A stretch of 53,745 nucleotides of DNA, from positions 1-53,745 of the IMG/VR virus record IMGVR_UViG_3300010400_000009. The stretch is one strand, 5' to 3'. The position numbers were made by a program, and so were the translations under genes. The notes under the pieces were generated by a model. That model was given only the letters and a program-made list of their open reading frames with translations, was not told the origin of the DNA and searched no databases. Positions 124 to 18,256 of this stretch are shown piece by piece; the first letter of the stretch is position 1; every line of letters starts with the position of its first letter. Source of the stretch: a virus (Duplodnaviria > Caudoviricetes).

Positions 124-3100
124 GCTTAGATGTTACTATTGGCGAGGTAACTGCAATTACGGGCTTAACTAGTAGTATTAGTGCTGATTTATTAACAACA
201 AACACAAGTGTAACTACCGTATCTACTAGTTTAAGTTCTGTTAGTTCTACTATTATGTTACTTTCAAGCGGTTTAAGTAACATAAGTTCAAATTTAAGTG
301 ATGTTAAATTAAATATTGATGATGTTAGCAGTAATTTAATTTTAACTAGCTCTAATCTTAGTTTATTAAGCAGTAATCTAAATATAACTAAAACAAATAT
401 AAGCAGCATATCAAATAATTTGAGTTTAACAAGTAGTAATTTATTATTAGTAAGTTCAAATATAAATGATGTATCATCAAATTTAAGTAATACCTCTAGC
501 GTATTACTATTGGTTAGTGATAATTTAGCAAACGGAGCAAATACAACTGCTTTAAGTAGTAATTTATCACTAGTTAGTAGCAGTTTATTAATAAATAATG
601 CGGATAATAGTGCAATATCTAATAATTTAAAAGCGGTAAGCTCTGCATTAAATTTAACAAGCAGTAATTTAAGCAGTGTATCATCTACATTAAACAAAAA
701 TATAGCTGATACTAGTTTTATTAGCTCCGATTTATTAGCATTAAATACTAATGTATTTTTAATTTCTGATAATTTAAGTTCTGTTAGTTCTTCATTAAGT
801 AATACTAGTGCTAATTTAAGCAGCGTATCATCTGCATTAAGTGATGTAATTGTATCAAGTAATAATATTGATGATGTATCCGATACTTTGTATGCTGTAA
901 GTTCAAGCATAATAGACATTAGTAGTAATATTGGTGTAATTTCCTCTATTATTACTACTAATATATCTGCTGTATCTGATACAGTAAACAGCGTAATATC
1001 AAGCCTTAGCCAAGTTTCCAGTACATTAGGTGTAACAAGTGCGGGTTTAAATGCTGTATCAAATACATTAAGTGTTACTAATTCTAATTTAAATTTAATT
1101 AGTGATAATATTAGCTCTGTATCAAGTAGTTTAAGTACAAGTATTTCTAATATTAATGTAATAAGTAGCAATCTTAGCTTAACTTCTAGCCGATTAATAT
1201 CCGTATCTAGTAATATCAGTTTGACTAGTTCCACATTAAATTTAATATCAAATAATGTAAGTAATTTAACATCAAGTTTTAGTATTATAAGCAATAATTT
1301 AAGCTCTGTATCTGATAATTTAATTTTAACTAGTTCCAACTTAAGCTTAGTTTCAAACGCTTTAAGTAATACCAATTCTAATATTGTTTTGATTAGCAAT
1401 AATTTAAGTTTAACCTCAAGTAATTTAGAATTGACTTCTGCGAATTTAAGTTTAACAAACTCCAATCTAAGTTTAGTTTCTAGTGCCTTGAGTAGCACTA
1501 ACTCGAATATTGGCGTAATTAGTAACAATCTAAGCCTTACATCAAGTTGTTTAATTAGCGTATCATCAACCCTAAGTTTAACTAGTTCTAATTTATTGCT
1601 TGTATCGGCTAGTTTAAGCGGAACAATATCTAATATAAGTATAATTAGCAGTAACTTAAGCAGTGTTAGCTCATCTTTAATTGTTACAAATACAAATATA
1701 AGCACTGTATCCAATAATTTAAGCTTAACCAGTAGTAATTTAATTGCAATATCTAATACAGTATCTAATACAATTAGTAATATTGGTGTAATTTCTAATA
1801 ATTTATTGCTTACTAGTTCCAATCTTTCCCTTGTTTCTGCTGGTTTAGTTTTAACTAATTCAAATTTAACACTAGTAAGCGATAATTTAAGTTTAACAAG
1901 TAGCCGTCTTAATTCTGTATCTAATAATCTTAGTAGTACATCGTCTAATTTATTACTTGTATCTAGTAATATCAATAATGTATCAAACTCATTAAGTACA
2001 ACCATAAGCAACTTTACATCATCAATAACATCTATAAGCGGTAATTTAAGCCTTACTTCTAGTAACCTATCTTTGACTAGTTCAACCTTAAATACCGTAA
2101 GCGGCGGATTAAGCACAACAAATAGTAATCTTGGATTAACTAATACATCAGTTTCTGCGGTTAGCGGATTATTAAGTACAACTATTAGTAATTTAGGTTT
2201 AGTAAGTACAAACTTAAGTAATACAGTATCCAATCTTACACTTGTAAGTAATAATTTAAGCAATACTAACTCAAACTTAACTTTAGTATCAACGAGCTTA
2301 AGTACATTAACATCTAATTTTACATTGGTTAGTAACAATTTAAGTTTAACTAGCAGCGGATTAATTGGCGTAAGCTCTACGCTTAATTTAACTAGTAATA
2401 ATTTAAGCTTAGTAAGCTCAAACTTAAGTAAAACTTCCAGCACATTAATTTTAGTATCTAATAGTTTAAGTAGTGTTAGTTCATCTTTAATTTTAGTTAG
2501 TTCTACTATATCATCTATAAGTAGTAATTTAAGTCTTGTTAGCTCAAGATTAAGTTTAGTGAGCAGTAATTTAAGTAGTGTTAGTTCATCTTTAAGCAAT
2601 ACATCTAGTTCACTTGCTACACTGACGGACTTTGCACAACTTAGAACTATACGTGTTTTAGATGATTTTTTAGATTTAAATAGCTGGACTATAGTTACTG
2701 GCGGATTAGGAGAAACAGCAACAGTTGTAAATGGAGCACTTACTGCATATAGCCATTTTGGTGTTGTAGAATTATCAACTAGCGCCGCCACTGGAGGTAC
2801 TGTTTCAATTGAAAAACTGGGACAAAAAACTAGTTACGATGGCAATAATCCCATAACTGTAGATTTGGTATTCGGATTTAGCCATGTAAATGCTAATCAT
2901 CGGTTTTTAATTGGATATTTTAATTCAGTCGGAACGACTGTTGCTTCTATAAATAGTGGTTTTGGTATTGAGTATAATGCGGCAAATAGTGCCAATTTAC
3001 AAGGCATTACATCAACTGGTACAGCTAATACTTTTACACGTGCTAGCTTAGGTATTGCGGCGGCTACTGGCACTGTTTATGTTATGAGAATTGTTGCAAC

Positions 3101-7267: not shown

Positions 7268-7952
7268 CTTTTTTAGCTTTTTTCATTAATTCTAAAAATT
7301 GCTTTTGTTCTTTTCTATTTAATTTACTTATATCAATATTATTTTTTTCTGCTGGTTTTTCAGGCTCAACCTCGCCCGCTTTATCCCCGTATTTTCTAGG
7401 ATTTAGCTTAGCTAGACTAAACTTTAGCGTATCAACAATTAATTTGTCGCAATTCACGCTTAGCGGGTTAGAATTTAGTGCAACTTCTATCATGTCATCG
7501 TGTGCATTATCAAGTTTTTTAGCATAAGCCATACGATACATGTCGGCAAACGCAGTATGTTTAATGCACCATTCCAAGATTGTACTTCTATCGGGGAAGT
7601 GGGGATTTTCTGCACAAACCCATTTTAAAGGGCGTTTTCCGCTATCGCCTATTGCCTGACAAATTTCTTGTGCTAATTCTAAATTATATAAGGTAGGGCG
7701 ACCACCTTTGTTTTTTTCTATTGGTTCAGTAAGATTATTCTTATTTTTTTCATAATTTAAAATCTCGTTATTTTGCGAGCTTTTAAGGGTTTCCATTAGA
7801 TTTTTGAGTGATGAAACCTCGTCTTTGTCTAATTTCTCGCCTTTCCCTGCTGAATTAATTAATTTATAGAGTTTTGCTTGAAGTGCTTTAAATTCTTTGT
7901 CGTGCTTTTCATTTAAAGTTTGCAAACCCTCTGCATATTCTTTTCTATTCAT
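7257..7952 (-). CDS. terS: Terminase small subunit with N-terminal coiled-coil extension
   Basis: GGRPTLY...EICQAI...PDRSTILEW...KLNPRKYGDK; directly upstream of terL. Confidence 0.85.
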   Translation of the reverse strand: MNRKEYAEGLQTLNEKHDKEFKALQAKLYKLINSAGKGEKLDKDEVSSLKNLMETLKSSQNNEILNYEKNKNNLTEPIEKNKGGRPTLYNLELAQEICQAIGDSGKRPLKWVCAENPHFPDRSTILEWCIKHTAFADMYRMAYAKKLDNAHDDMIEVALNSNPLSVNCDKLIVDTLKFSLAKLNPRKYGDKAGEVEPEKPAEKNNIDISKLNRKEQKQFLELMKKAKKDEN

Positions 7953-9225
7953 TAAGTAGCTCCGCTTTCTGCCCTGTTAAATTTTCATATCTTTGTAAAA
8001 TTACATCGCAATATTTCGGGTCTAATTCCATTATATAAGCTTTACGCTCTGTTTTTTGACAAGCTATTAGGGTTGTACCGCTTCCGCCGAATAAATCTAA
8101 TACAATATGATTTTTATTAGAGCAGTCTAAAATTGTGTCTGCAACTAATTCAAGCGGCTTAACAGTAGGGTGCATTCCTGCTTCTTCGGCTCTATCCTTA
8201 TTTTTAAAGCTATTTACAATAGGATAATCCCATACATTAGAGCGCGTACGCCCGAATTGCCCTAATTCAAAGTTGTTTATATGTTTTTCATTACCATTTT
8301 TATAAACAAATATAAGCTCATGCTTACTTCTGTAAAAACTGCCCATACCAAAATTGTCTTTATTCCATATGCACAAATTTTTAAGTTCAGTAAATACTCC
8401 ATTGGCTGCATTAATAACATTATGCATATGCCTCCAATCCATACATATATAATGTATACTGCCGTTTGTACTATGAATAATTAGATTATTAAAAGTATCT
8501 TGTAAAAATTGTGTAAATTCCTTATCAGTCATTTCCCCGCTTGCCATTTTAAACTCGCCCATTTCTTTTATGCTATCAAAACCTTTTAAGCCAGTTCCTA
8601 TATTTGCAATCTTTATATTATAAGGCGGGTCGGTAAATACCATATTAGCCTTACTGCCGTTCATCAATTTATCAACATCAGATAGCAAAATAGAGTTACC
8701 GCACATTAATCTATGATTACCTAGCTTGTATATATCGCCGTATTTAGTTTTAGGCTCAATTGGCGGTTCGGGCGTTTCTTCTTCCTCTTCCATGTTTTCA
8801 GGCATAACTTCATCAGGATTTAGCAACTGCTCAAGCTCTCCTTCATCAAAACCGATTAAACTTAAATCAAAATTTAACTCCTGCAACTGCTCAAGCTCAA
8901 CTTTTAGCAGTTCATTATCCCATGTAGAATTTAAAGCAAGTTTATTGTCGGCTATGATATATGCCTTCTTTTGTGCCTCACTTAAATGCGATAATTCAAT
9001 ACAAGGCACTTTTTTAAGTTTTAACATTTTTGCAGCAGATAGCCTACCATGCCCCGCAATTATGCCATTTTCGCCGTCAATTAATATAGGATTGGTAAAT
9101 CCGAACTCTTTTATTGAGGCGGCTACTTGTGATATTTGCTCATCGCTATGTAAACGTGAATTATTAATATAGCCGATTAAATCAGATACATTTTTATAAA
9201 TTATTTGCTGATTTTCATTTTTCAT
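7945..9225 (-). CDS. ParB-like N-terminal domain fused to an N6/N4 DNA methyltransferase
   Basis: N-terminal NSRLH...FGFTNPIL...IIAGHGRL...IADNKL; C-terminal DPPY, HPTVKP and DLFGGSGT. Confidence 0.92.
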   Translation of the reverse strand: MKNENQQIIYKNVSDLIGYINNSRLHSDEQISQVAASIKEFGFTNPILIDGENGIIAGHGRLSAAKMLKLKKVPCIELSHLSEAQKKAYIIADNKLALNSTWDNELLKVELEQLQELNFDLSLIGFDEGELEQLLNPDEVMPENMEEEEETPEPPIEPKTKYGDIYKLGNHRLMCGNSILLSDVDKLMNGSKANMVFTDPPYNIKIANIGTGLKGFDSIKEMGEFKMASGEMTDKEFTQFLQDTFNNLIIHSTNGSIHYICMDWRHMHNVINAANGVFTELKNLCIWNKDNFGMGSFYRSKHELIFVYKNGNEKHINNFELGQFGRTRSNVWDYPIVNSFKNKDRAEEAGMHPTVKPLELVADTILDCSNKNHIVLDLFGGSGTTLIACQKTERKAYIMELDPKYCDVILQRYENLTGQKAELLNE

Positions 9226-11479: not shown

Positions 11480-12175
11480 TTAAAGCGATTTTTGAGGCGT
11501 TTGCACGCTGAAATTGATTATATTTACTCTACCACCTTTCTTAATTGGTTCATATATAATTTTTAAATCTGTTACGTCGTTGATTTCTGCTATAGCTGGC
11601 TTTAATAGCATATTATTAAAATGTTTAAATTCTGCATAGCTTTTTTTATCTTTTGCTAGAAAATCATAAATAAATTTAAATGATAAATTGAAATTTTTAA
11701 ATTTAAATGTTTTAGATTTTATTAGCTCATACATTGGTAGGCTGTGAATTCCTTGCAACACATTTAATTTATTTAGGTCTAGCTCCGTATATCCATGCTC
11801 AATATTTTTTTTGCCCGCTGAGTTTTTATAATTAATATTTAAAAAATTAATTAGCTGGCTTGACATCTCAATTTGATAGTTGTTTCTAGTAGCTTTAACT
11901 GCTGAAATATAACAACTAAATTCATAATCCTCGTTTAGATTATTTTCTAATGAGAACATCTCATTTTTCATTAAGCCTAAAAATATTTTTTTTATTTGTG
12001 CATGTGAAAAATTAGAAGGGATAAAGTCGCCTAGCTCTTGCCTGCTTAAATTTATAATATTAGAAGTGAATTTTATTTTTGAAAATTCAAAGATTAGCTG
12101 ATTGAATAGTTTGCGTTGCAGGTTAGTTAGATTATTATTTGCAATTATTGCAAAATTAGGCTTATAGATTATCAT
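11480..12175 (-). CDS. repB: Plasmid replication initiator, Rep_3 (RepB) family
   Basis: Motifs LTNLQRKLF, YTELDL...SLPMYELIK and YAEFKHFNNMLLKPAIAEIN...YEPIKKGGRV...F; iterons nearby. Confidence 0.88.
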   Translation of the reverse strand: MIIYKPNFAIIANNNLTNLQRKLFNQLIFEFSKIKFTSNIINLSRQELGDFIPSNFSHAQIKKIFLGLMKNEMFSLENNLNEDYEFSCYISAVKATRNNYQIEMSSQLINFLNINYKNSAGKKNIEHGYTELDLNKLNVLQGIHSLPMYELIKSKTFKFKNFNLSFKFIYDFLAKDKKSYAEFKHFNNMLLKPAIAEINDVTDLKIIYEPIKKGGRVNIINFSVQTPQKSL

Positions 12176-13435: not shown

Positions 13436-13612
13436 ATGTCTGAAAAAAACGAAAATGAGGCTATTTTAAATAAGCTAGAAACCTTAGAAGACAAATTAAA
13501 CAATTTACATTCTACAATTCAAGAGGCTTTAGGTGTAAATATTGTTAAGGTATTAGAGAGCCACCAACGTTCAATAAATATTTTAAGTAAAAATAAGGAA
13601 GATAAAAAATGA
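13436..13612 (+). CDS. Small coiled-coil protein, 58 aa (not in ORF track)
   Basis: MSEKNENEAILNKLETLEDKLNNL...; RBS AAGGA; ATGA overlap with the next gene. Confidence 0.65.
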   Translation: MSEKNENEAILNKLETLEDKLNNLHSTIQEALGVNIVKVLESHQRSINILSKNKEDKK

Positions 13613-14391
13613 GTTTAATAGACGCTGCAAACAAAAGAAGGAATGATATTTTAAAAAATTTAATTAAGGAGCAAGTGCAACATTCTTTAGTACATATAAA
13701 TTTTATGAAGTTAGCCAAAAAATACAATGTTAATCGTAATGCCATAGCTAATGATATTAATTTTTTTTTAAAAAATAATATGCTTGAATGGTTTTTACCA
13801 AACGCACAGGTTTATAAGCTTGTTGGTGATAAAAAAACTATAAATAATGAATATCTACCACCTGCAGAAATTAAGCCCAAAATTGAAGCAGAGGCAGAGC
13901 CAAAAAAAATAAATGTTGCTAATAAAAAACAATCTGATAAAGATTTAGACTTTTCTTTAATAAATGTTGATTTTTTTAACGAATTAGAAATAAAATCTAT
14001 TCATGATTTTGTTGCACATAGGCAACAAATAAAAGAGCCATTTACAAAAATAGGATTTTCGGCATTTATTAATAAAGCAAAAAAATTTAAAGAAAAAAAA
14101 TATTGTTTAATACAATGTGTTGAAGACGCTATTGTTGGTTCATGGAAAAGTATTTATCCGCCAAAAAACTATAATAACAATAATGTAAATATTAGGCAGA
14201 TGACTTACAAAGAAATTGACGAGCATAATAGAATAGACGCACTAAGAAGAGATAGAGAAGCCATGAATATCGCAAATAATGCGGTAGAAAGTATTAGTGA
14301 TAAATGGGCGAATAAATATAAAAATAATATTAATGGAGAAAATGAAAATGACAATGGAAATTTACTTACAAGCACTTACAAAAATAGTTAA
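13609..14391 (+). CDS. Phage replication initiator (lambda O-like: N-terminal HTH plus conserved C-terminal domain)
   Basis: LAKKYNVNRNAIANDI HTH; FVAHRQQIKEPFT...CVEDAIVGSWKSIY. Confidence 0.65.
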   Translation: MSLIDAANKRRNDILKNLIKEQVQHSLVHINFMKLAKKYNVNRNAIANDINFFLKNNMLEWFLPNAQVYKLVGDKKTINNEYLPPAEIKPKIEAEAEPKKINVANKKQSDKDLDFSLINVDFFNELEIKSIHDFVAHRQQIKEPFTKIGFSAFINKAKKFKEKKYCLIQCVEDAIVGSWKSIYPPKNYNNNNVNIRQMTYKEIDEHNRIDALRRDREAMNIANNAVESISDKWANKYKNNINGENENDNGNLLTSTYKNS

Positions 14392-15028
14392 TGAATGTTT
14401 TTTTTTGTATCCAAAACAACAAATTTTTAACGCTTGGAATATAGAAAGTGCTCCTGATTTTTTTGAAAATAAAGCAGATTTATTATTAAAAAAAATAATT
14501 GAATTAAAAATACCAGCAAAATATTTAAAAGATATTACGCATAAATTACAAGAAAATTATGTAAAATATCCGCCTTCATTACTACAACTAATAGATTTAA
14601 TGAAGCCAGTGCATAATTACGAACGTTTATTTAGAACCACCCAGCAAAACGCCATAATTATACAACAATATTTAGACGGCTTAAATAGTCATAGTTTAGA
14701 TAAACTTTGTAAATTTTCTTATAATATTTATGAGAAAATGAAAAGCTTAAAAGGTATAAACATTATATCTAAACAATGGTGTAATGTAAACTGCGGGCAG
14801 ATGGATATAGAATTCAAAAATTGTTCTGATGAGTTTATTGAAGTTTTTAATTTAGTAGATTTTATACAAGAATGCGAACTTTTGCCTATTCCTGCACCAA
14901 TAATCAAAATTGATATTATTAAATCTAAGGCAGAATTAGAGGAAGAGGATAGGATAAATAAGGAAAACATAAAAATATTTAAAGAAGTAATGCAAAGCTT
15001 GTGCGAAAAATTTACTGTAAATACTTGA
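14342..15028 (+). CDS. Putative helicase loader (P-like)
   Basis: Follows the O-like gene; KYPPSLLQLI motif. Confidence 0.45.
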   Translation: MKMTMEIYLQALTKIVNECFFLYPKQQIFNAWNIESAPDFFENKADLLLKKIIELKIPAKYLKDITHKLQENYVKYPPSLLQLIDLMKPVHNYERLFRTTQQNAIIIQQYLDGLNSHSLDKLCKFSYNIYEKMKSLKGINIISKQWCNVNCGQMDIEFKNCSDEFIEVFNLVDFIQECELLPIPAPIIKIDIIKSKAELEEEDRINKENIKIFKEVMQSLCEKFTVNT

Positions 15029-15053
15029 CAAATATTCTACAAATATGTAGAAT
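15025..15053 (+). promoter_or_regulatory. Strong sigma70 promoter with overlapping inverted-repeat operator for the RNA/Ro60 operon
   Basis: TTGACA-17-TAGAAT; ATTCTACA-aata-TGTAGAAT at 15034-15053. Confidence 0.8.
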
Positions 15054-15060
15054 TATAAAT

Positions 15061-15129
15061 GTGATGTGCTGAAGCTTGCAGTTACTTATCTTGAAAATAA
15101 AACCAACTGTAAGCGATTGTTGCCGTTAT
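15061..15129 (+). ncRNA. Y-RNA-like unit 1
   Basis: Basal stem, internal loop UGCUGAA/GAUUGUUGC, 10-bp stem GCUUGCAGUU/AACUGUAAGC and conserved AGUUACUUA. Confidence 0.72.
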
Positions 15130-15133
15130 GTGA

Positions 15134-15198
15134 TTATGCGTGTTGAGTTATACAGTTACTTAATGCTATCTAGTCTGTATACATTTGTTACCGCATAA
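15134..15198 (+). ncRNA. Y-RNA-like unit 2
   Basis: Stem UUAUGCG/CGCAUAA, loop UGUUGA/AUUUGUUAC, stem AUACAG/CUGUAU and AGUUACUUA. Confidence 0.72.
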
Positions 15199-15208
15199 AT
15201 GATGATGT

Positions 15209-15273
15209 TTGCGTGCTGAAAAAAATAGTTACTTAATATGGTTTTAAAACACTATTTTTGCTTATTGCCGCAA
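15209..15273 (+). ncRNA. Y-RNA-like unit 3
   Basis: Stem UUGCG/CGCAA, loop UGCUGAA/GCUUAUUGC, stem AAAAAUAG/CUAUUUUU and AGUUACUUA. Confidence 0.72.
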
Positions 15274-15279
15274 TTAAAA

Positions 15280-15403
15280 TGAGTGGTGCAGTAAAAAGTT
15301 ACTTATACAATTGGACTGTTTACTCGGAGGTTCAATCCCTCTGCCATATTTTAAAATATGGTTCTTGGTTAGAGAGTTGTTACTTTTTACGCTTGTTCCC
15401 TCA
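15280..15403 (+). ncRNA. YrlA-like Y RNA (unit 4) with circularly permuted tRNA-mimic domain
   Basis: Stems UGAG/CUCA and GUAAAAAG/CUUUUUAC plus AGUUACUUA enclose a T-arm (GGAGG-UUCAAUC-CCUCU), a closed acceptor-like hairpin (15343-15362) and a D-like arm (UCU-UGGUU-AGA). Confidence 0.78.
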
Positions 15404-15408
15404 ACGTT

Positions 15409-15484
15409 AGCGGGGTAGAGAAGCAGTATCTCGTCGGTCTCATAAGCCGAAGGTCGCTGGTGCAATCCCAGCCCGCCGCTACCA
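15409..15484 (+). tRNA. tRNA-Met(CAT), initiator-like and atypical
   Basis: fMet-like body; anticodon arm UCGGU-CUCAUAA-GCCGA; T-loop UGCAAUC; encoded ACCA; extra G in the 3' acceptor strand. Confidence 0.85.
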
Positions 15485-15485
15485 T

Positions 15486-15561
15486 GGTTCTATAGTGTTA
15501 ATGGTTAGCACGTAGCATTGTCAATGCTATAGTGTGGGTTCGAACCCCACTAGAACCGCCA
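15486..15561 (+). tRNA. tRNA-Asp(GTC)
   Basis: Acceptor GGUUCUA/UAGAACC, G73, CCA; anticodon arm UAGCA-UUGUCAA-UGCUA; T-loop UUCGAAC. Confidence 0.92.
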
Positions 15562-15563
15562 TT

Positions 15564-15643
15564 GCTAACTTAGCTTAACAGTAAAGCAACTTTTGGCTTC
15601 GGCTTTGAGAAGTATATAGGTGCAATTCCTTTAGTTAGCTCCA
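15564..15643 (+). tRNA. tRNA-like RNA with Gly-like acceptor end and no canonical anticodon loop
   Basis: Acceptor GCUAACU/AGUUAGC, U73, CCA; D-stem GCUU/AAGC; extended anticodon arm capped by GGC-UUCG-GCU. Confidence 0.7.
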
Positions 15644-15665
15644 ACAATCACAGCATATTATCCAA

Positions 15666-15681
15666 TGTTTCACGTGAAACA
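15666..15681. promoter_or_regulatory. parS: parS consensus site 1
   Basis: TGTTTCACGTGAAACA, intergenic. Confidence 0.85.
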
Positions 15682-15707
15682 ATTTAACATTTAAGGATTA
15701 AATTAAT

Positions 15708-17027
15708 ATGCAAACTAATACCAAAAATCAAAATACAAACCATGAAGGCACAGTCATTCAAGTTATACCTCCATTTATTGAATTAAAACGGGCGGTAATG
15801 ACAACTTTATTAGGCGAAAATACTTTTTATGAAAGCGGTCAATCTGTAAAGGCTAGAATTAGCGAGTTAGTGCATAAATGTGAATTTGACGCAGTGCTAG
15901 ACTTAGCTATTGAAAGCAAAGAGCAAGCGAATTTAAGACATGCACCACTTTTAATATTAAAAGAATTAGCTAAACATGCAGGCTTAAAAGATTTTAACAA
16001 TGCCAAAGCATACCGCAATGCAATATTTAGGGTTTGCACACGTGCCGACGACTTAACCGAACTATTGGCTATGTACTGGGAAGGCGGACGTAAACCTATA
16101 GCTAAACAATTAAAATTAGGTTTAGCTCAAGCCTTCACAAAATTTAATGAATATGCATTAGGTAAATACAATCGTGATAAAGCAGTAAAATTAAAAGATG
16201 TTTTATTTATGGTTCATGCTAAACCAAAAGATACAGCACAGGCTGAATTATGGAAGCGTCTTATTGATAATAAACTCGCAACGCCTGATACATGGGAAGT
16301 TGCTTTGTCTGCTGGAAAAGATAAAAAAGAAACGTGGACAAGATTATTAAATGAAAATAAGCTAGGCTATTTAGCAGTACTTAGAAATTTAAGAAATATG
16401 CGAGATGTTGGCGTAGATGATAATTTAATAAAAGATAAATTAATAAATTCAAAAGGAAAAGAAAAAATACTACCGCACCAGTTTATAGCGGCCGCTTGTG
16501 TAAATCCTAGTCTTGAAAATTCTATAAATGACGCTTTACTTGAAAATTTATCTAATCATGAAAAATTAAAAGGTAAAACAATTATTTTAGTTGATGTATC
16601 GGGTTCTATGGAAAGCAAACTATCGGAAAAATCGGAAATGCGACTAATTGAAGCAGGTGCGGGAGTTGCTGCAATATGCCGTGAAATTTGCGAACAGGTT
16701 GAAATATTTGCATTTAGTAATGATGTTAGAGAAGTTCCTGCACGTCAAGGCATGGCTTTAATTGATAAATTAAAATCTATGTTAGGCGGCGGTACAAGTT
16801 TAGGCAAAGCAATAGATTTTTTGAATACTAAAGATTATGATAGAATTATTGTAATTACCGACGAACAGTCAAGCGACAAAGTGCAAGCTCCTAAAGGCAA
16901 GGGTTATATTGTAAATATTGCCCCTTATAAAATGCAGATAGGTTTCGGGGAATGGATTAGAATTAATGGGTTTAGTCAAAACTTAATTAAATATATTTTA
17001 GAACACGAGAAAGAAGGTATAGTATAG
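15708..17027 (+). CDS. rsr: Ro60/Rsr (TROVE plus vWA domain) RNA-binding protein
   Basis: NHEG, LLGENTFYESG, NLRHAP, RADDLTELLA, KFNEYALGKY, TPDTWEVALS, LRNLRN; MIDAS DVSGS and ITDEQ. Confidence 0.93.
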   Translation: MQTNTKNQNTNHEGTVIQVIPPFIELKRAVMTTLLGENTFYESGQSVKARISELVHKCEFDAVLDLAIESKEQANLRHAPLLILKELAKHAGLKDFNNAKAYRNAIFRVCTRADDLTELLAMYWEGGRKPIAKQLKLGLAQAFTKFNEYALGKYNRDKAVKLKDVLFMVHAKPKDTAQAELWKRLIDNKLATPDTWEVALSAGKDKKETWTRLLNENKLGYLAVLRNLRNMRDVGVDDNLIKDKLINSKGKEKILPHQFIAAACVNPSLENSINDALLENLSNHEKLKGKTIILVDVSGSMESKLSEKSEMRLIEAGAGVAAICREICEQVEIFAFSNDVREVPARQGMALIDKLKSMLGGGTSLGKAIDFLNTKDYDRIIVITDEQSSDKVQAPKGKGYIVNIAPYKMQIGFGEWIRINGFSQNLIKYILEHEKEGIV

Positions 17028-17272
17028 AACCTAACGCATTAGATGATATTAGCTCTAATGCACAACTAGAGCTAATTAAGTTCATCAAAGCCGAGCGGCA
17101 AAAGCAAGATATTAATCCGCACAAACTAAGTTTTTTAGCTGGCGGAATTAATATTTATCGCTTTGAAAATAACACACATAATCATAAATTAAAGGATATT
17201 ATTAAAATTCTTAATATTTTAGGCTATACTTTGGATATAAAACATTTAAAAAAAAAGGTAAATCATGGATAA
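17024..17272 (+). CDS. XRE-family HTH regulator, probable ATA start (not in ORF track)
   Basis: Open frame reads ...LIKFIKAERQKQDINPHKLSFLAGGINIYRFENNTHNHKLKDIIKILNILGYTL... There is an in-frame TAA at 16988 and no ATG/GTG/TTG ahead of the HTH. GAAGG lies 6 nt before an ATA that overlaps the Ro60 stop. Confidence 0.65.
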   Translation: MEPNALDDISSNAQLELIKFIKAERQKQDINPHKLSFLAGGINIYRFENNTHNHKLKDIIKILNILGYTLDIKHLKKKVNHG

Positions 17273-17495
17273 AATTATAAAATATAGCATGTTATTAGTA
17301 TCAGTAATTGTTACTGGTTTAATATTTTTGCTCGGGTTTGCTGTTTATGATGAGATGACTTTTAAAGATAAAACAGATAAATTCATTACGGCGAATAACT
17401 GCAAAGGCACAAATAACGCAGTTGGTACACGCTATACTGTGCAGCAGGAATTTATTTGTAAGGATTATCAGTCTTTTTGGTTAAGAGTTAAATAA
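17265..17495 (+). CDS. Small membrane-anchored protein with two Cys
   Basis: N-terminal TM segment; RBS AAGG. Confidence 0.65.
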   Translation: MDKIIKYSMLLVSVIVTGLIFLLGFAVYDEMTFKDKTDKFITANNCKGTNNAVGTRYTVQQEFICKDYQSFWLRVK

Positions 17496-17497
17496 TT

Positions 17498-17644
17498 TTA
17501 ATTTTGCAATGAATTATGAAAATTTATTGCAAACCCAATAAGCCATACGGCTTTTTGAAATTGTGTAGCTGTATCAATAAAAATCAAAGCTAAACCGCAT
17601 GCAGTTGCACATATGCACGATATAAGAAATAATATTTTTGTCAT
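17498..17644 (-). CDS. Small hydrophobic protein, 48 aa (not in ORF track)
   Basis: MTKILFLISCICATACGLALIFID...; ATGA coupling to the upstream ORF. Confidence 0.5.
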   Translation of the reverse strand: MTKILFLISCICATACGLALIFIDTATQFQKAVWLIGFAINFHNSLQN

Positions 17645-17817
17645 AAAAAAGAATAAGTGAAATATTTAAGGTTGCATAAAACACAAATAAAAAATGTAAG
17701 AATTCCCGCTATAGCAGTTACTATAAATAGATTGCTCCGCTCCGCCTTGCCATTCAAAAAATTTAATATAAGAAAACTGCCCAACATTACATAAGCACTA
17801 ATTATTAGACACAGCAT
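17641..17817 (-). CDS. Small two-TM protein, 58 aa (not in ORF track)
   Basis: MLCLIISAYVMLGSFLILNFL...LFIVTAIAGILTFFICVL... Confidence 0.5.
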   Translation of the reverse strand: MLCLIISAYVMLGSFLILNFLNGKAERSNLFIVTAIAGILTFFICVLCNLKYFTYSFL

Positions 17818-18256
17818 TGTACTTGCTCCCGTATTTTTCTAACAGGCTATCTATATGCTTATTTATTGTATCTTTAAAATTTGCATTAAATTTTATAAAA
17901 TCAAATGTTTTAATATTTATATTTTCTACAATTTTAATAAGCGGTTCGCAACAGCCTATAGAAATTATTATCTTTTCGGGGTTACTGGAACTTACATCAA
18001 AATAAAATGTTAAGGTAAAATCCTTTTTAGTATGCAATTTTAGTTCTAGTTCATCTATATGCATATCTGAATAAGTAGACTTGCAATAATTAATATATGT
18101 ATGCGTTAGCTCATATTTGCTTAATACAGGGTGGCTTTTAAATAATTCTATATACTTATTTAAATTCTCTGATACTATGCTTATTGCTTCGTGATAATTA
18201 AACTTGATTGCACGCATTGTCTGCCTTACATTTAAATAATTGATTAATGAGTTCAT
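17798..18256 (-). CDS. Hypothetical protein, possible paralogue of 18198-18566
   Basis: Similar segments ELELKLH/CLELIFNFH and FNANFKDTINKHIDSL/FNNKAKNIINELINQL. Confidence 0.6.
   Translation of the reverse strand: MNSLINYLNVRQTMRAIKFNYHEAISIVSENLNKYIELFKSHPVLSKYELTHTYINYCKSTYSDMHIDELELKLHTKKDFTLTFYFDVSSSNPEKIIISIGCCEPLIKIVENINIKTFDFIKFNANFKDTINKHIDSLLEKYGSKYNAVSNN

Follow-up and report, generated by a model that had tools for sequence, protein, structure and literature searches.

A complete phage genome record of 53,745 bp (IMG/VR record IMGVR_UViG_3300010400_000009, analysed over its whole length and called the window below), with direct terminal repeats and genes for tailed-phage proteins including terminase and portal, carries four head-to-tail units on its + strand that are very probably four Y RNA genes, forming one operon with transfer RNA (tRNA) genes and the gene of a Ro60 (Rsr) homologue. 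The units occupy the first part of a 679-nt non-coding stretch between the open reading frames (ORFs) 14297-15028 and 15708-17027, the latter encoding the Ro60 homologue, and take up the gap that separates ORF 14297-15028 from the tRNA genes. They share one anatomy, their stems covary, they are linked to a Ro60 gene, and they belong to a large family of Ro60-linked units.

Read from 5' to 3', each unit opens with a basal stem that has G-C as its final pair, after which come a bulged U, a 2-bp helix, the 5' loop of 4 nt and an inner stem; these are followed by UUACUUA, an insert, a 3' strand that starts with CU, a 7-nt 3' loop and the closing strands. The 2-bp helix reads GC/GC, GU/AC, GC/GC and GG/CC in units 1 to 4, respectively, the 5' loop UGAA, UGAG, UGAA and UGCA, and the 3' loop GAUUGUU, AUUUGUU (after an extra C), GCUUAUU and GCUUGUU. 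The inner stem has 8 bp and ends in A-U and G-C pairs; that of unit 2 has 7 bp and one mismatch. All these stems are A+U-rich. A reading of the DNA made beforehand from its letters only (the sequence-only reading) had described a fourfold layout of conserved loops, paired stems of differing sequence and variable inserts, and this layout is present at 15059-15403 as described. The variation in insert length that it noted is also found, the range of about 11 to about 75 nt becoming 18, 12, 16 and 77 nt for units 1 to 4 when counted by hand. The linkers, likewise counted by hand, are short (2, 10, 6 and 4 nt, the last from unit 4 to tRNA-Met). A repeat search returned a single family of four copies with start-to-start spacings of 74, 73 and 70, and the 9-mer AGTTACTTA occurs four times in the window, always in the units and on the + strand; shuffled sequences held a mean of 1.25 occurrences, and four were reached in 3 of 100.

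The comparative evidence comes from other phages. Twenty-eight viral contig loci were fetched via their Ro60 genes, the products of which are at most 52% identical to the window Ro60, and the DNA upstream of Ro60 was read in three of them. The same scaffold is found there in more G+C-rich form: a basal stem, U, GG, C/U-G-A/U-A, an 8-bp helix and N-UACUUC, then, after the insert, the returning strand, G-N-U-U-R-U-U, CC and the basal stem. A covariance model, R1, was built from 14 short units of nine other phage contigs, none of them from the window. In its training alignment 95.4% of 218 cells pair and 13 of 16 pairs change on both sides, values matched by none of 500 shuffles and by no slid control (at most 55.5%). 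When the four window units are aligned to this model, 93.8% of 64 cells pair and 11 of the 16 pairs change on both sides, in an alignment which, like that of the 150 top matches described below, was fitted to the model structure and so favours pairing. Pairing of this degree was reached in 0 of 500 shuffles, and sliding the 3' partners by 1-3 columns lowered it to 33.9-53.4%. The compensatory changes that the sequence-only reading had seen in the stems are thus borne out.

R1 was run across the whole window on both strands with filters off. Among its 15 matches at E<=10 the four units rank first, with 50.0, 46.4, 36.5 and 34.7 bits; the fifth-best match scores 11.5 bits (E 0.62), and only the four units fall below E 1e-6. 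Among the 28 viral loci, 26 hold R1 matches (62 at E<=0.01), as do 74 of 88 metagenome and genome loci (182 at E<=0.001), the loci being counted by hand in both cases. All of these matches lie on the strand of the Ro60 gene. This amounts to at least 244 matches in 116 loci, which are not all independent, since some contigs are present in two collections. When the top 150 matches (139 of them distinct) are aligned, pairing is kept in 95.0% of 2220 cells, and all 16 pairs show changes on both sides. The end-paired stem expected of Y RNAs is thus found in the folds and in the alignments, both in the window and across the family.

Among the Ro60 proteins of the viral, metagenome and genome collections none is more than 54% identical to that of the window, and none in the named phage collection exceeds 48.1%. 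Compared with phages as DNA, the region was matched in tRNA-Met and in a small part of the Ro60 gene and nowhere else. When the viral collection was scanned for exact motifs, either the 5' motif with AGTTACTTA or two copies of AGTTACTTA 50-80 nt apart, the matches listed were due to chance only. A lenient filter, which asked for two or more complete 5'-motif matches or for one together with another AGTTACTTA, kept eight of at least 234 loci with exact motifs. None of these was tandem, the matches overlapping or lying kilobases apart, so that no phage carrying the exact motifs of the window came up, again among those listed.

Four other explanations are rejected on two grounds: covarying stems go together with fixed loops, and the scaffold tracks Ro60 genes. 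Direct repeats with a period of about 72 bp, lying within 4 kb of a Rep3-type initiator gene (11480-12175, - strand) and a gene for an O-like replication protein (13609-14391), could be iterons or operator sites that act as DNA for nearby replication or regulatory proteins, yet fixed loops with covarying stems are the signature of RNA, and the scaffold accompanies Ro60 genes on their own strand in 26 of 28 and 74 of 88 loci; the probability left to this explanation is negligible. Hardly any more credit is due to a cis-regulatory leader of the tRNA genes, such as a T-box, another riboswitch or an attenuator. A weak Rfam T-box match does cover 15055-15211 (12.5 bits, E 3.5), but the T-box cut-off of 93 bits is far above it, four repeats resemble no known leader architecture, and the scan contained no terminator/antiterminator pair. 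Small ORFs (15258-15410, + strand; 15274-15465, - strand) and a CRISPR-like array were considered as well, and were rejected on the same grounds.

The geometry of the scaffold is nearly constant in the relatives, where, among matches picked by a model built with those lengths, the 5' loop has 4 nt in 139 of 139 units, the 5' strand of the inner stem 8 nt in 135 and the 3' loop 7 nt in 138. UACUU and an A-rich stretch 5' of the 3' strand are further conserved features of the family, and in this phage-linked group the 3' strand (G-N-U-U-R-U-U, then CC) is conserved as strongly as the 5' strand. Arrays of 2-7 units were often seen, with seven in one locus (L008) and five in another (L021); four metagenome loci gave five R1 matches each, and several others four. 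Unit lengths are bimodal: 102 of the 139 distinct units are shorter than 100 nt and of the short hairpin type, and 37 have 100 nt or more (about 130 nt). The T-loop motif occurs in 34 of the 37 long units, as against two of the short ones. Three short units followed by a long one, the order seen in the window, recur in two loci of this set. Relatives also have units that lie downstream of Ro60 or well away from its start codon.

Unit 4 is the long member of the window array. Within its 77-nt insert, 15325-15343 form a T arm, 15344-15361 an acceptor-like hairpin of 7 bp and about 15362-15376 the shortened remnant of a D arm, and the unit aligns with the long units of relatives; units 1-3 are without a permuted tRNA-like domain. 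For a second covariance model, R2, 26 long units of relatives were used. RNAalifold placed 32 pairs in their consensus, spread over the Ro helix, the T arm, the 7-bp acceptor-like hairpin and the D arm, and 27 of the 32 show compensating changes. On unit 4, R2 aligned the T arm and the 7-bp hairpin, and the shortened D arm partly and with low confidence. No unit is called a tRNA by ARAGORN or by the Rfam tRNA model. Published work describes YrlA as a Y RNA that carries a permuted tRNA-like domain, with at least two Y RNAs per species derived from a common precursor (Chen 2014, PMC4201824). By sequence comparison, unit 4 is accordingly classed as a putative circularly permuted tRNA-like domain of the YrlA type, and units 1-3 as predicted short, imperfect hairpins of the YrlB/Yrn2 type. 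By analogy with YrlA of Mycobacterium smegmatis, unit 4 might be cut by RNase P in the acceptor-like hairpin.

Near-identical relatives of the region were sought in public sequencing runs. Four runs with small shares were mapped on 14900-15800, three runs that hold the whole stretch being left uncounted as possible sources of the record; most of the cover in the four falls on tRNA-Met and comes from other organisms, and gaps in the cover of the RNA-library run carry no meaning. A DNA contig (run X5) covers 15051-15282 with four differences, and one of run X6, an RNA library, spans 15096-15246 and has five. Of eight located differences, seven lie in the inserts of units 2 and 3, one in the outermost basal pair of unit 2 and none in the conserved loops; the unit 2 insert at 15164-15170 varies in two near-identical relatives. 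These differences fit a conserved scaffold with fast-changing tips. A second X6 contig, from the RNA library of a freshwater sample, follows 15231-15304, in the 3' part of unit 3 and the scaffold of unit 4, with one difference and then continues in other sequence directly after UUACUU, its diverging letters starting with the C that is usual in the family. This suggests a near-identical phage with another distal module in unit 4 and, from one contig, hints at an exchange of inserts among close relatives; the X6 contigs may stem from DNA in the library, and they reveal neither RNA ends nor strand. A joint of 15121 to 15485 in run X9 (side 29, depth 2) is too weak to interpret. The proposal of the sequence-only reading that a constant scaffold holds interchangeable cargo is therefore upheld in part: the X6 contig speaks for exchange, but the part after the inner stem is not freely variable, UACUU and the A-rich stretch being conserved and the inserts falling into two classes, 102 short and 37 long.

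The surroundings of the array agree with a Ro60-linked operon (Table 1). The sigma-70-like promoter candidate ends 6 nt 5' of unit 1, with a predicted start at about the first bases of that unit; the scan yielded 25 sites where shuffled sequence gave a mean of 21.5, and the site is a consensus match only. As expected of Y RNA genes, the Ro60 start codon lies close to the array on the same strand, 305 nt 3' of the last unit. The product also matches phrog_850, annotated as 'RNA-binding protein' (3e-41), and, over residues 12-428, the solved Ro60 of Thermus phage phiLo (9KOP, 9L5Y; E 5.7e-22). The sequence-only reading took the asymmetric internal loop to be a Ro60 site of the GNCGA type, and for this predicted site comparison gives strong support, through the Ro60 gene downstream, the specificity of R1 and the matching position of the motif.

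Table 1. Predicted promoter, RNA units, tRNA-related elements and Ro60 gene in the window.
Feature	Position	Strand	Details
Sigma-70-like promoter	15025-15053	+	TTGACA-17 nt-TAGAAT; 11/12 hexamer matches; tied best among 25 sites in 14000-18000
Unit 1, short hairpin type	15059-15131	+	Inner stem 15074-15081/15107-15114; UUACUUA 15082-15088; R1 match 15061-15129, 50.0 bits, E 5.6e-12; fold agrees, z -2.64
Unit 2, short hairpin type	15134-15198	+	Inner stem 15149-15155/15175-15181, mismatch below; UUACUUA 15156-15162; R1 match 15135-15197, 34.7 bits, E 1.4e-7; loop-region fold slightly off, z -1.74
Unit 3, short hairpin type	15209-15273	+	Inner stem 15221-15228/15252-15259; UUACUUA 15229-15235; R1 match 15208-15274, 46.4 bits, E 6e-11; fold agrees, z -2.07
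Unit 4, putative YrlA type	15280-15403	+	Inner stem 15291-15298/15383-15390; UUACUUA 15299-15305; R1 36.5 bits; R2 59.9 bits, E 8.6e-12; fold z -2.39
tRNA-Met (CAU)	15408-15479	+	ARAGORN; Rfam tRNA 45.0 bits; starts 4 nt past unit 4
tRNA-Asp (GUC)	15486-15561	+	ARAGORN; Rfam tRNA 65.1 bits
tRNA-like element	15564-15640	+	Rfam tRNA 39.9 bits; acceptor, D and T arms; encoded CCA
Ro60/Rsr homologue, 439 aa	15708-17027	+	Pfam TROVE 3.1e-15, vWA_Ro60 2e-7

In the element at 15564-15640 a longer hairpin replaces the anticodon arm, with a stretch of 16 nt against 11 in the Rfam model, and it is because of this hairpin that ARAGORN does not call it; folded by itself, the element gives no cloverleaf (z 0.04). 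It may not serve in decoding and may instead mimic a tRNA. Elements of true tRNA topology were also seen among the relatives, as the first Ro60-linked unit at L017:2674-2802, L012:2199-2331 and L020:2675-2798. In these, D and T arms accompany an open acceptor stem of 7 bp with CCA encoded, and a Ro60-type helix (CC, 7-nt loop, 8-bp helix, CGAA or CGCA, GG, bulged U) with a small closing loop stands in place of the anticodon arm; they are circular permutations of YrlA. Their scores with the Rfam tRNA model, which needs a long insertion, are 44.8-50.5 bits. In the window, the stretch from the tRNA-like element to the Ro60 start codon contains a perfect 14-bp palindrome, GTTTCAC/GTGAAAC (about 15668-15681), which could be a small hairpin or an operator. 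Farther upstream, the Rep3-type plasmid initiator encoded at 11480-12175 has WH1 and WH2 domains, and the gene at 7945-9225 (- strand) joins a ParB-like domain to a DNA methyltransferase; together they hint at a plasmid-like way of life.

Transcription from one promoter would leave the units either as separate RNAs or as one structured leader of the tRNA-Ro60 transcript that stays uncut and serves as a multivalent platform for loading Ro60, or for feedback of Ro60 on its own mRNA. The very short linkers (2-10 nt) would suit such a leader, as would the lack of a terminator-like site between the units and Ro60, the sole + strand site of the scan being the T arm of unit 4. In phiLo, moreover, one Y RNA-like molecule has two hairpins with CGAA in each, and Ro60-RNA complexes of higher order are formed (PMC12135203). 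On the other hand, Y RNA precursors of M. smegmatis and Deinococcus radiodurans, which contain other Y RNAs and a tRNA, are processed to separate RNAs (PMC4201824), every window unit is closed by a basal stem of its own in the manner of separate Y RNAs, and the units that relatives have downstream of Ro60, or well away from its start codon, are poorly placed for a leader. An uncut leader is therefore considered improbable, and four separate Y RNAs remain the preferred reading.

Several observations weigh against that reading, besides the favourable fitting of the alignments, the consensus-only promoter and the possible DNA origin of the X6 contigs mentioned above. Folding of single sequences reproduces the scaffold in units 1, 3 and 4, and approximately in unit 2, which upholds the stems proposed by the sequence-only reading, but the fold z-scores of the single units are modest (-1.7 to -2.6), and the region folded as a whole has z -1.74, with 4 of 100 shuffles as good. 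Thermodynamics by itself is insufficient, and the decisive evidence is comparative. Rfam Y RNA families gave no match at E<=10 in 14900-15750, and the best match of the Rfam YrlA family (RF02553) in the phage scores 13.7 bits, against a curated cut-off of 69 bits, and lies off the units at 15510-15605. The published motif close to the Y RNA 5' end is GNCGAAN0-1G, with a conserved YUAY after the stem (PMC4201824); the corresponding motifs of units 1 to 4 are GCUGAAG, GUUGAGU, GCUGAAA and GGUGCAG, in which U replaces C throughout, and units 2 and 4 also deviate at one of the two A positions of GNCGAA. When the C of CGAA was changed to U in phiLo, binding in vitro became about threefold weaker (PMC12135203). 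Among 150 aligned relatives, this C/U position is U in 89 and C in 61. Two departures concern bases that hardly vary elsewhere. Of 139 relatives, 136 have G-C as second pair of the 2-bp helix, where units 1 to 4 have C-G, U-A, C-G and G-C, respectively. UACUUC ends in C in every one of 150 relatives, and each of the four units has A there. Binding could be altered if Ro60 reads the flipped pair and the final base of UACUUA; either Ro60 ignores those bases, or the Ro60 of this phage has changed along with them.

The same departures bear on the idea that only unit 4 is functional and that units 1-3 are duplicates in decay, their tRNA-like domain lost. It is units 1-3 that differ at the nearly invariant G-C pair, and unit 2 has a mismatched inner stem together with the lowest R1 score, 34.7 bits. 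The flip is, however, compensated on both strands in all three units. The fixed lengths (4 nt, 8 bp and 7 nt) are kept in units 1, 3 and 4, unit 2 having an 8-nt 3' side and its mismatch, while short units form the majority in relatives (102 of 139 distinct) and the two near-identical relatives differ from the window in inserts, not in scaffold. Decay of units 1-3 is accordingly judged very unlikely.

The window units are tied to published Y RNAs via a chain of intermediates, not by a direct Rfam match. RF02553 matches the long units of several relatives below its cut-off: one viral locus (L006) scores 43.3 bits, Xanthomonas phage Tenjo has matches of 55.9 and 38.8 bits, and Gordonia phage Neville has one of 44.1 bits. 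The YrlA match of Neville is flanked by two R1 matches, both weak, that contain G-C-G-A-A-G and then GUUACUUC. The annotation of these phages may be set beside the matches. In the cultured phage Tenjo (LR743531.1, L359) five tandem units (29.3-61.2 bits) lie at 863-1458 in an unannotated gap upstream of the Ro60 gene, itself annotated as a hypothetical protein, and two of the five match Rfam YrlA below the cut-off. In Neville (NC_060131.1, L358) the weak scaffold and YrlA matches at 1020-1347 overlap four small coding sequences (CDS) labelled 'hypothetical protein' upstream of a Ro-like gene, and these four calls may be RNA genes. In phiLo (MH673673.1, L357) R1 detects one unit at 2996-3059 (28.4 bits, with GUACUUC), 14 nt downstream of the Ro60 CDS and overlapping CDS phiLo_25; upstream of that Ro60, where PMC12135203 places its two RNAs, R1 found nothing at E<=1, and the comparison thus gives no tie between R1 and those RNAs.

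Compared with YrlA (RF02553), the window units are alike in lying next to Ro60 on the same strand, in the end-paired stem with a motif of the G-N-(C/U)-G-A-A type on the 5' strand, in Y-U-A-Y after the stem and, for unit 4, in a putative domain with T arm, closed acceptor-like hairpin and D arm in permuted tRNA order. They are unlike it in lacking even a weak Rfam YrlA score, in U for C in the motif and in the shortened D arm of unit 4; in addition, the group to which they belong conserves the 3' strand too, whereas across bacteria only the 5' strand is said to be conserved (bioRxiv 10.1101/312249). Units 1-3 may be likened to YrlB of Salmonella Typhimurium and M. smegmatis and to Yrn2 of D. 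radiodurans, extra Y RNAs without a full tRNA-like domain that stand beside a tRNA-like one in a common precursor. YrlB and Yrn2 are described as long hairpins with a small loop (PMC4201824), and units 1-3 fit this, the likeness being one of description only. The window has three such short units instead of one, and they keep the UACUU and the 4-nt/8-bp/7-nt geometry of the long type.

The precursor Yrn2-tRNA-Asp-Yrn1 of D. radiodurans, which includes tRNA-Asp (PMC4201824), is similar in that Y RNAs and tRNA-Asp lie upstream of rsr. In the window tRNA-Asp stands between the Y RNAs and rsr, the order being four Y RNAs first and then tRNA-Met, tRNA-Asp and the tRNA-like element. With Thermus phage phiLo the window shares a homologous phage Ro60 and Y RNA-like RNAs near its gene. 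The phiLo Ro60 binds two upstream Y RNA-like RNAs (Yrl1 and Yrl2) via a CGAA motif and forms a complex with the polynucleotide phosphorylase (PNPase) of the host, which attenuates RNA degradation by PNPase (PMC12135203); the internal-loop motif was shown there to matter for binding. phiLo has two RNAs with CGAA, as against four with UGAA, UGAG or UGCA in the window. Metazoan Y RNAs are alike in the Ro60-binding helix formed by the ends, a bulged pyrimidine, conserved bases of the 5' strand (GGUCCGA, PMC4201824) and a modular design, but they are without a tRNA-like domain and the sequence likeness is limited to the layout of the motif.

The proposed operon thus runs from the promoter through the four Y RNA genes, tRNA-Met, tRNA-Asp and the tRNA-like element to the Ro60 (Rsr) gene. 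It would be transcribed as one precursor and processed into four RNAs, in each of which the 5' and 3' ends would pair into a stem bearing the Ro60-binding module, that is, the bulged U, the 2-bp helix, the 4-nt (U-G-A/C-A/G) against 7-nt (G-N-U-U-R-U-U) loop, the 8-bp helix and UACUU. By homology, the phage Ro60 ring would be expected to sit on this module, mainly via the 5' strand. The division of Y RNAs into a Ro60-binding stem and an effector module is the textbook view (bioRxiv 10.1101/312249), and PNPase is a partner in D. radiodurans and S. Typhimurium (PMC4201824); by analogy with Deinococcus, Salmonella and phiLo, the distal parts may tether or regulate host factors such as PNPase during infection. 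More tentatively, and with considerable doubt, the 4-nt/7-nt loop and UACUU(C), held 8 bp apart in both unit types, could form a two-part, ruler-like element read by Ro60 or by a second conserved partner, and the arrays a kit by which one Ro60 ring is retargeted through distal modules swapped between strains by recombination at the UACUU junction. If so, the compensated G-C flip and the C-to-A change in UACUUC would reflect co-evolution of the RNAs with the phage's own Ro60.

The kind of system is already known: descriptions of Y RNAs beside bacterial and phage Ro60 genes go back to 2014, and in 2025 a phage Ro60 was characterised together with its Y RNAs. What is new is this member with its variant motif, how widely Ro60-linked arrays of fixed geometry occur, and how strongly the 3' strand and UACUUC are conserved. 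Among the papers covered by a full-text search, none describes phage arrays of at least four Y RNAs; Supplemental Tables S1/S2 and Fig. S4 of Chen 2014 may list arrays or a 3'-strand consensus. The window thus offers a clean array of four genes, missed by Rfam and standard annotation, within a complete phage genome, and the array belongs to a family whose UACUUC block is more invariant than the published Ro60 motif. Its natural variants (U for C, the flipped G-C pair and UACUUA) probe which bases Ro60 requires, and a curated model would let phage annotation label RNAs that are now left blank or called small hypothetical proteins, as in Tenjo and Neville.

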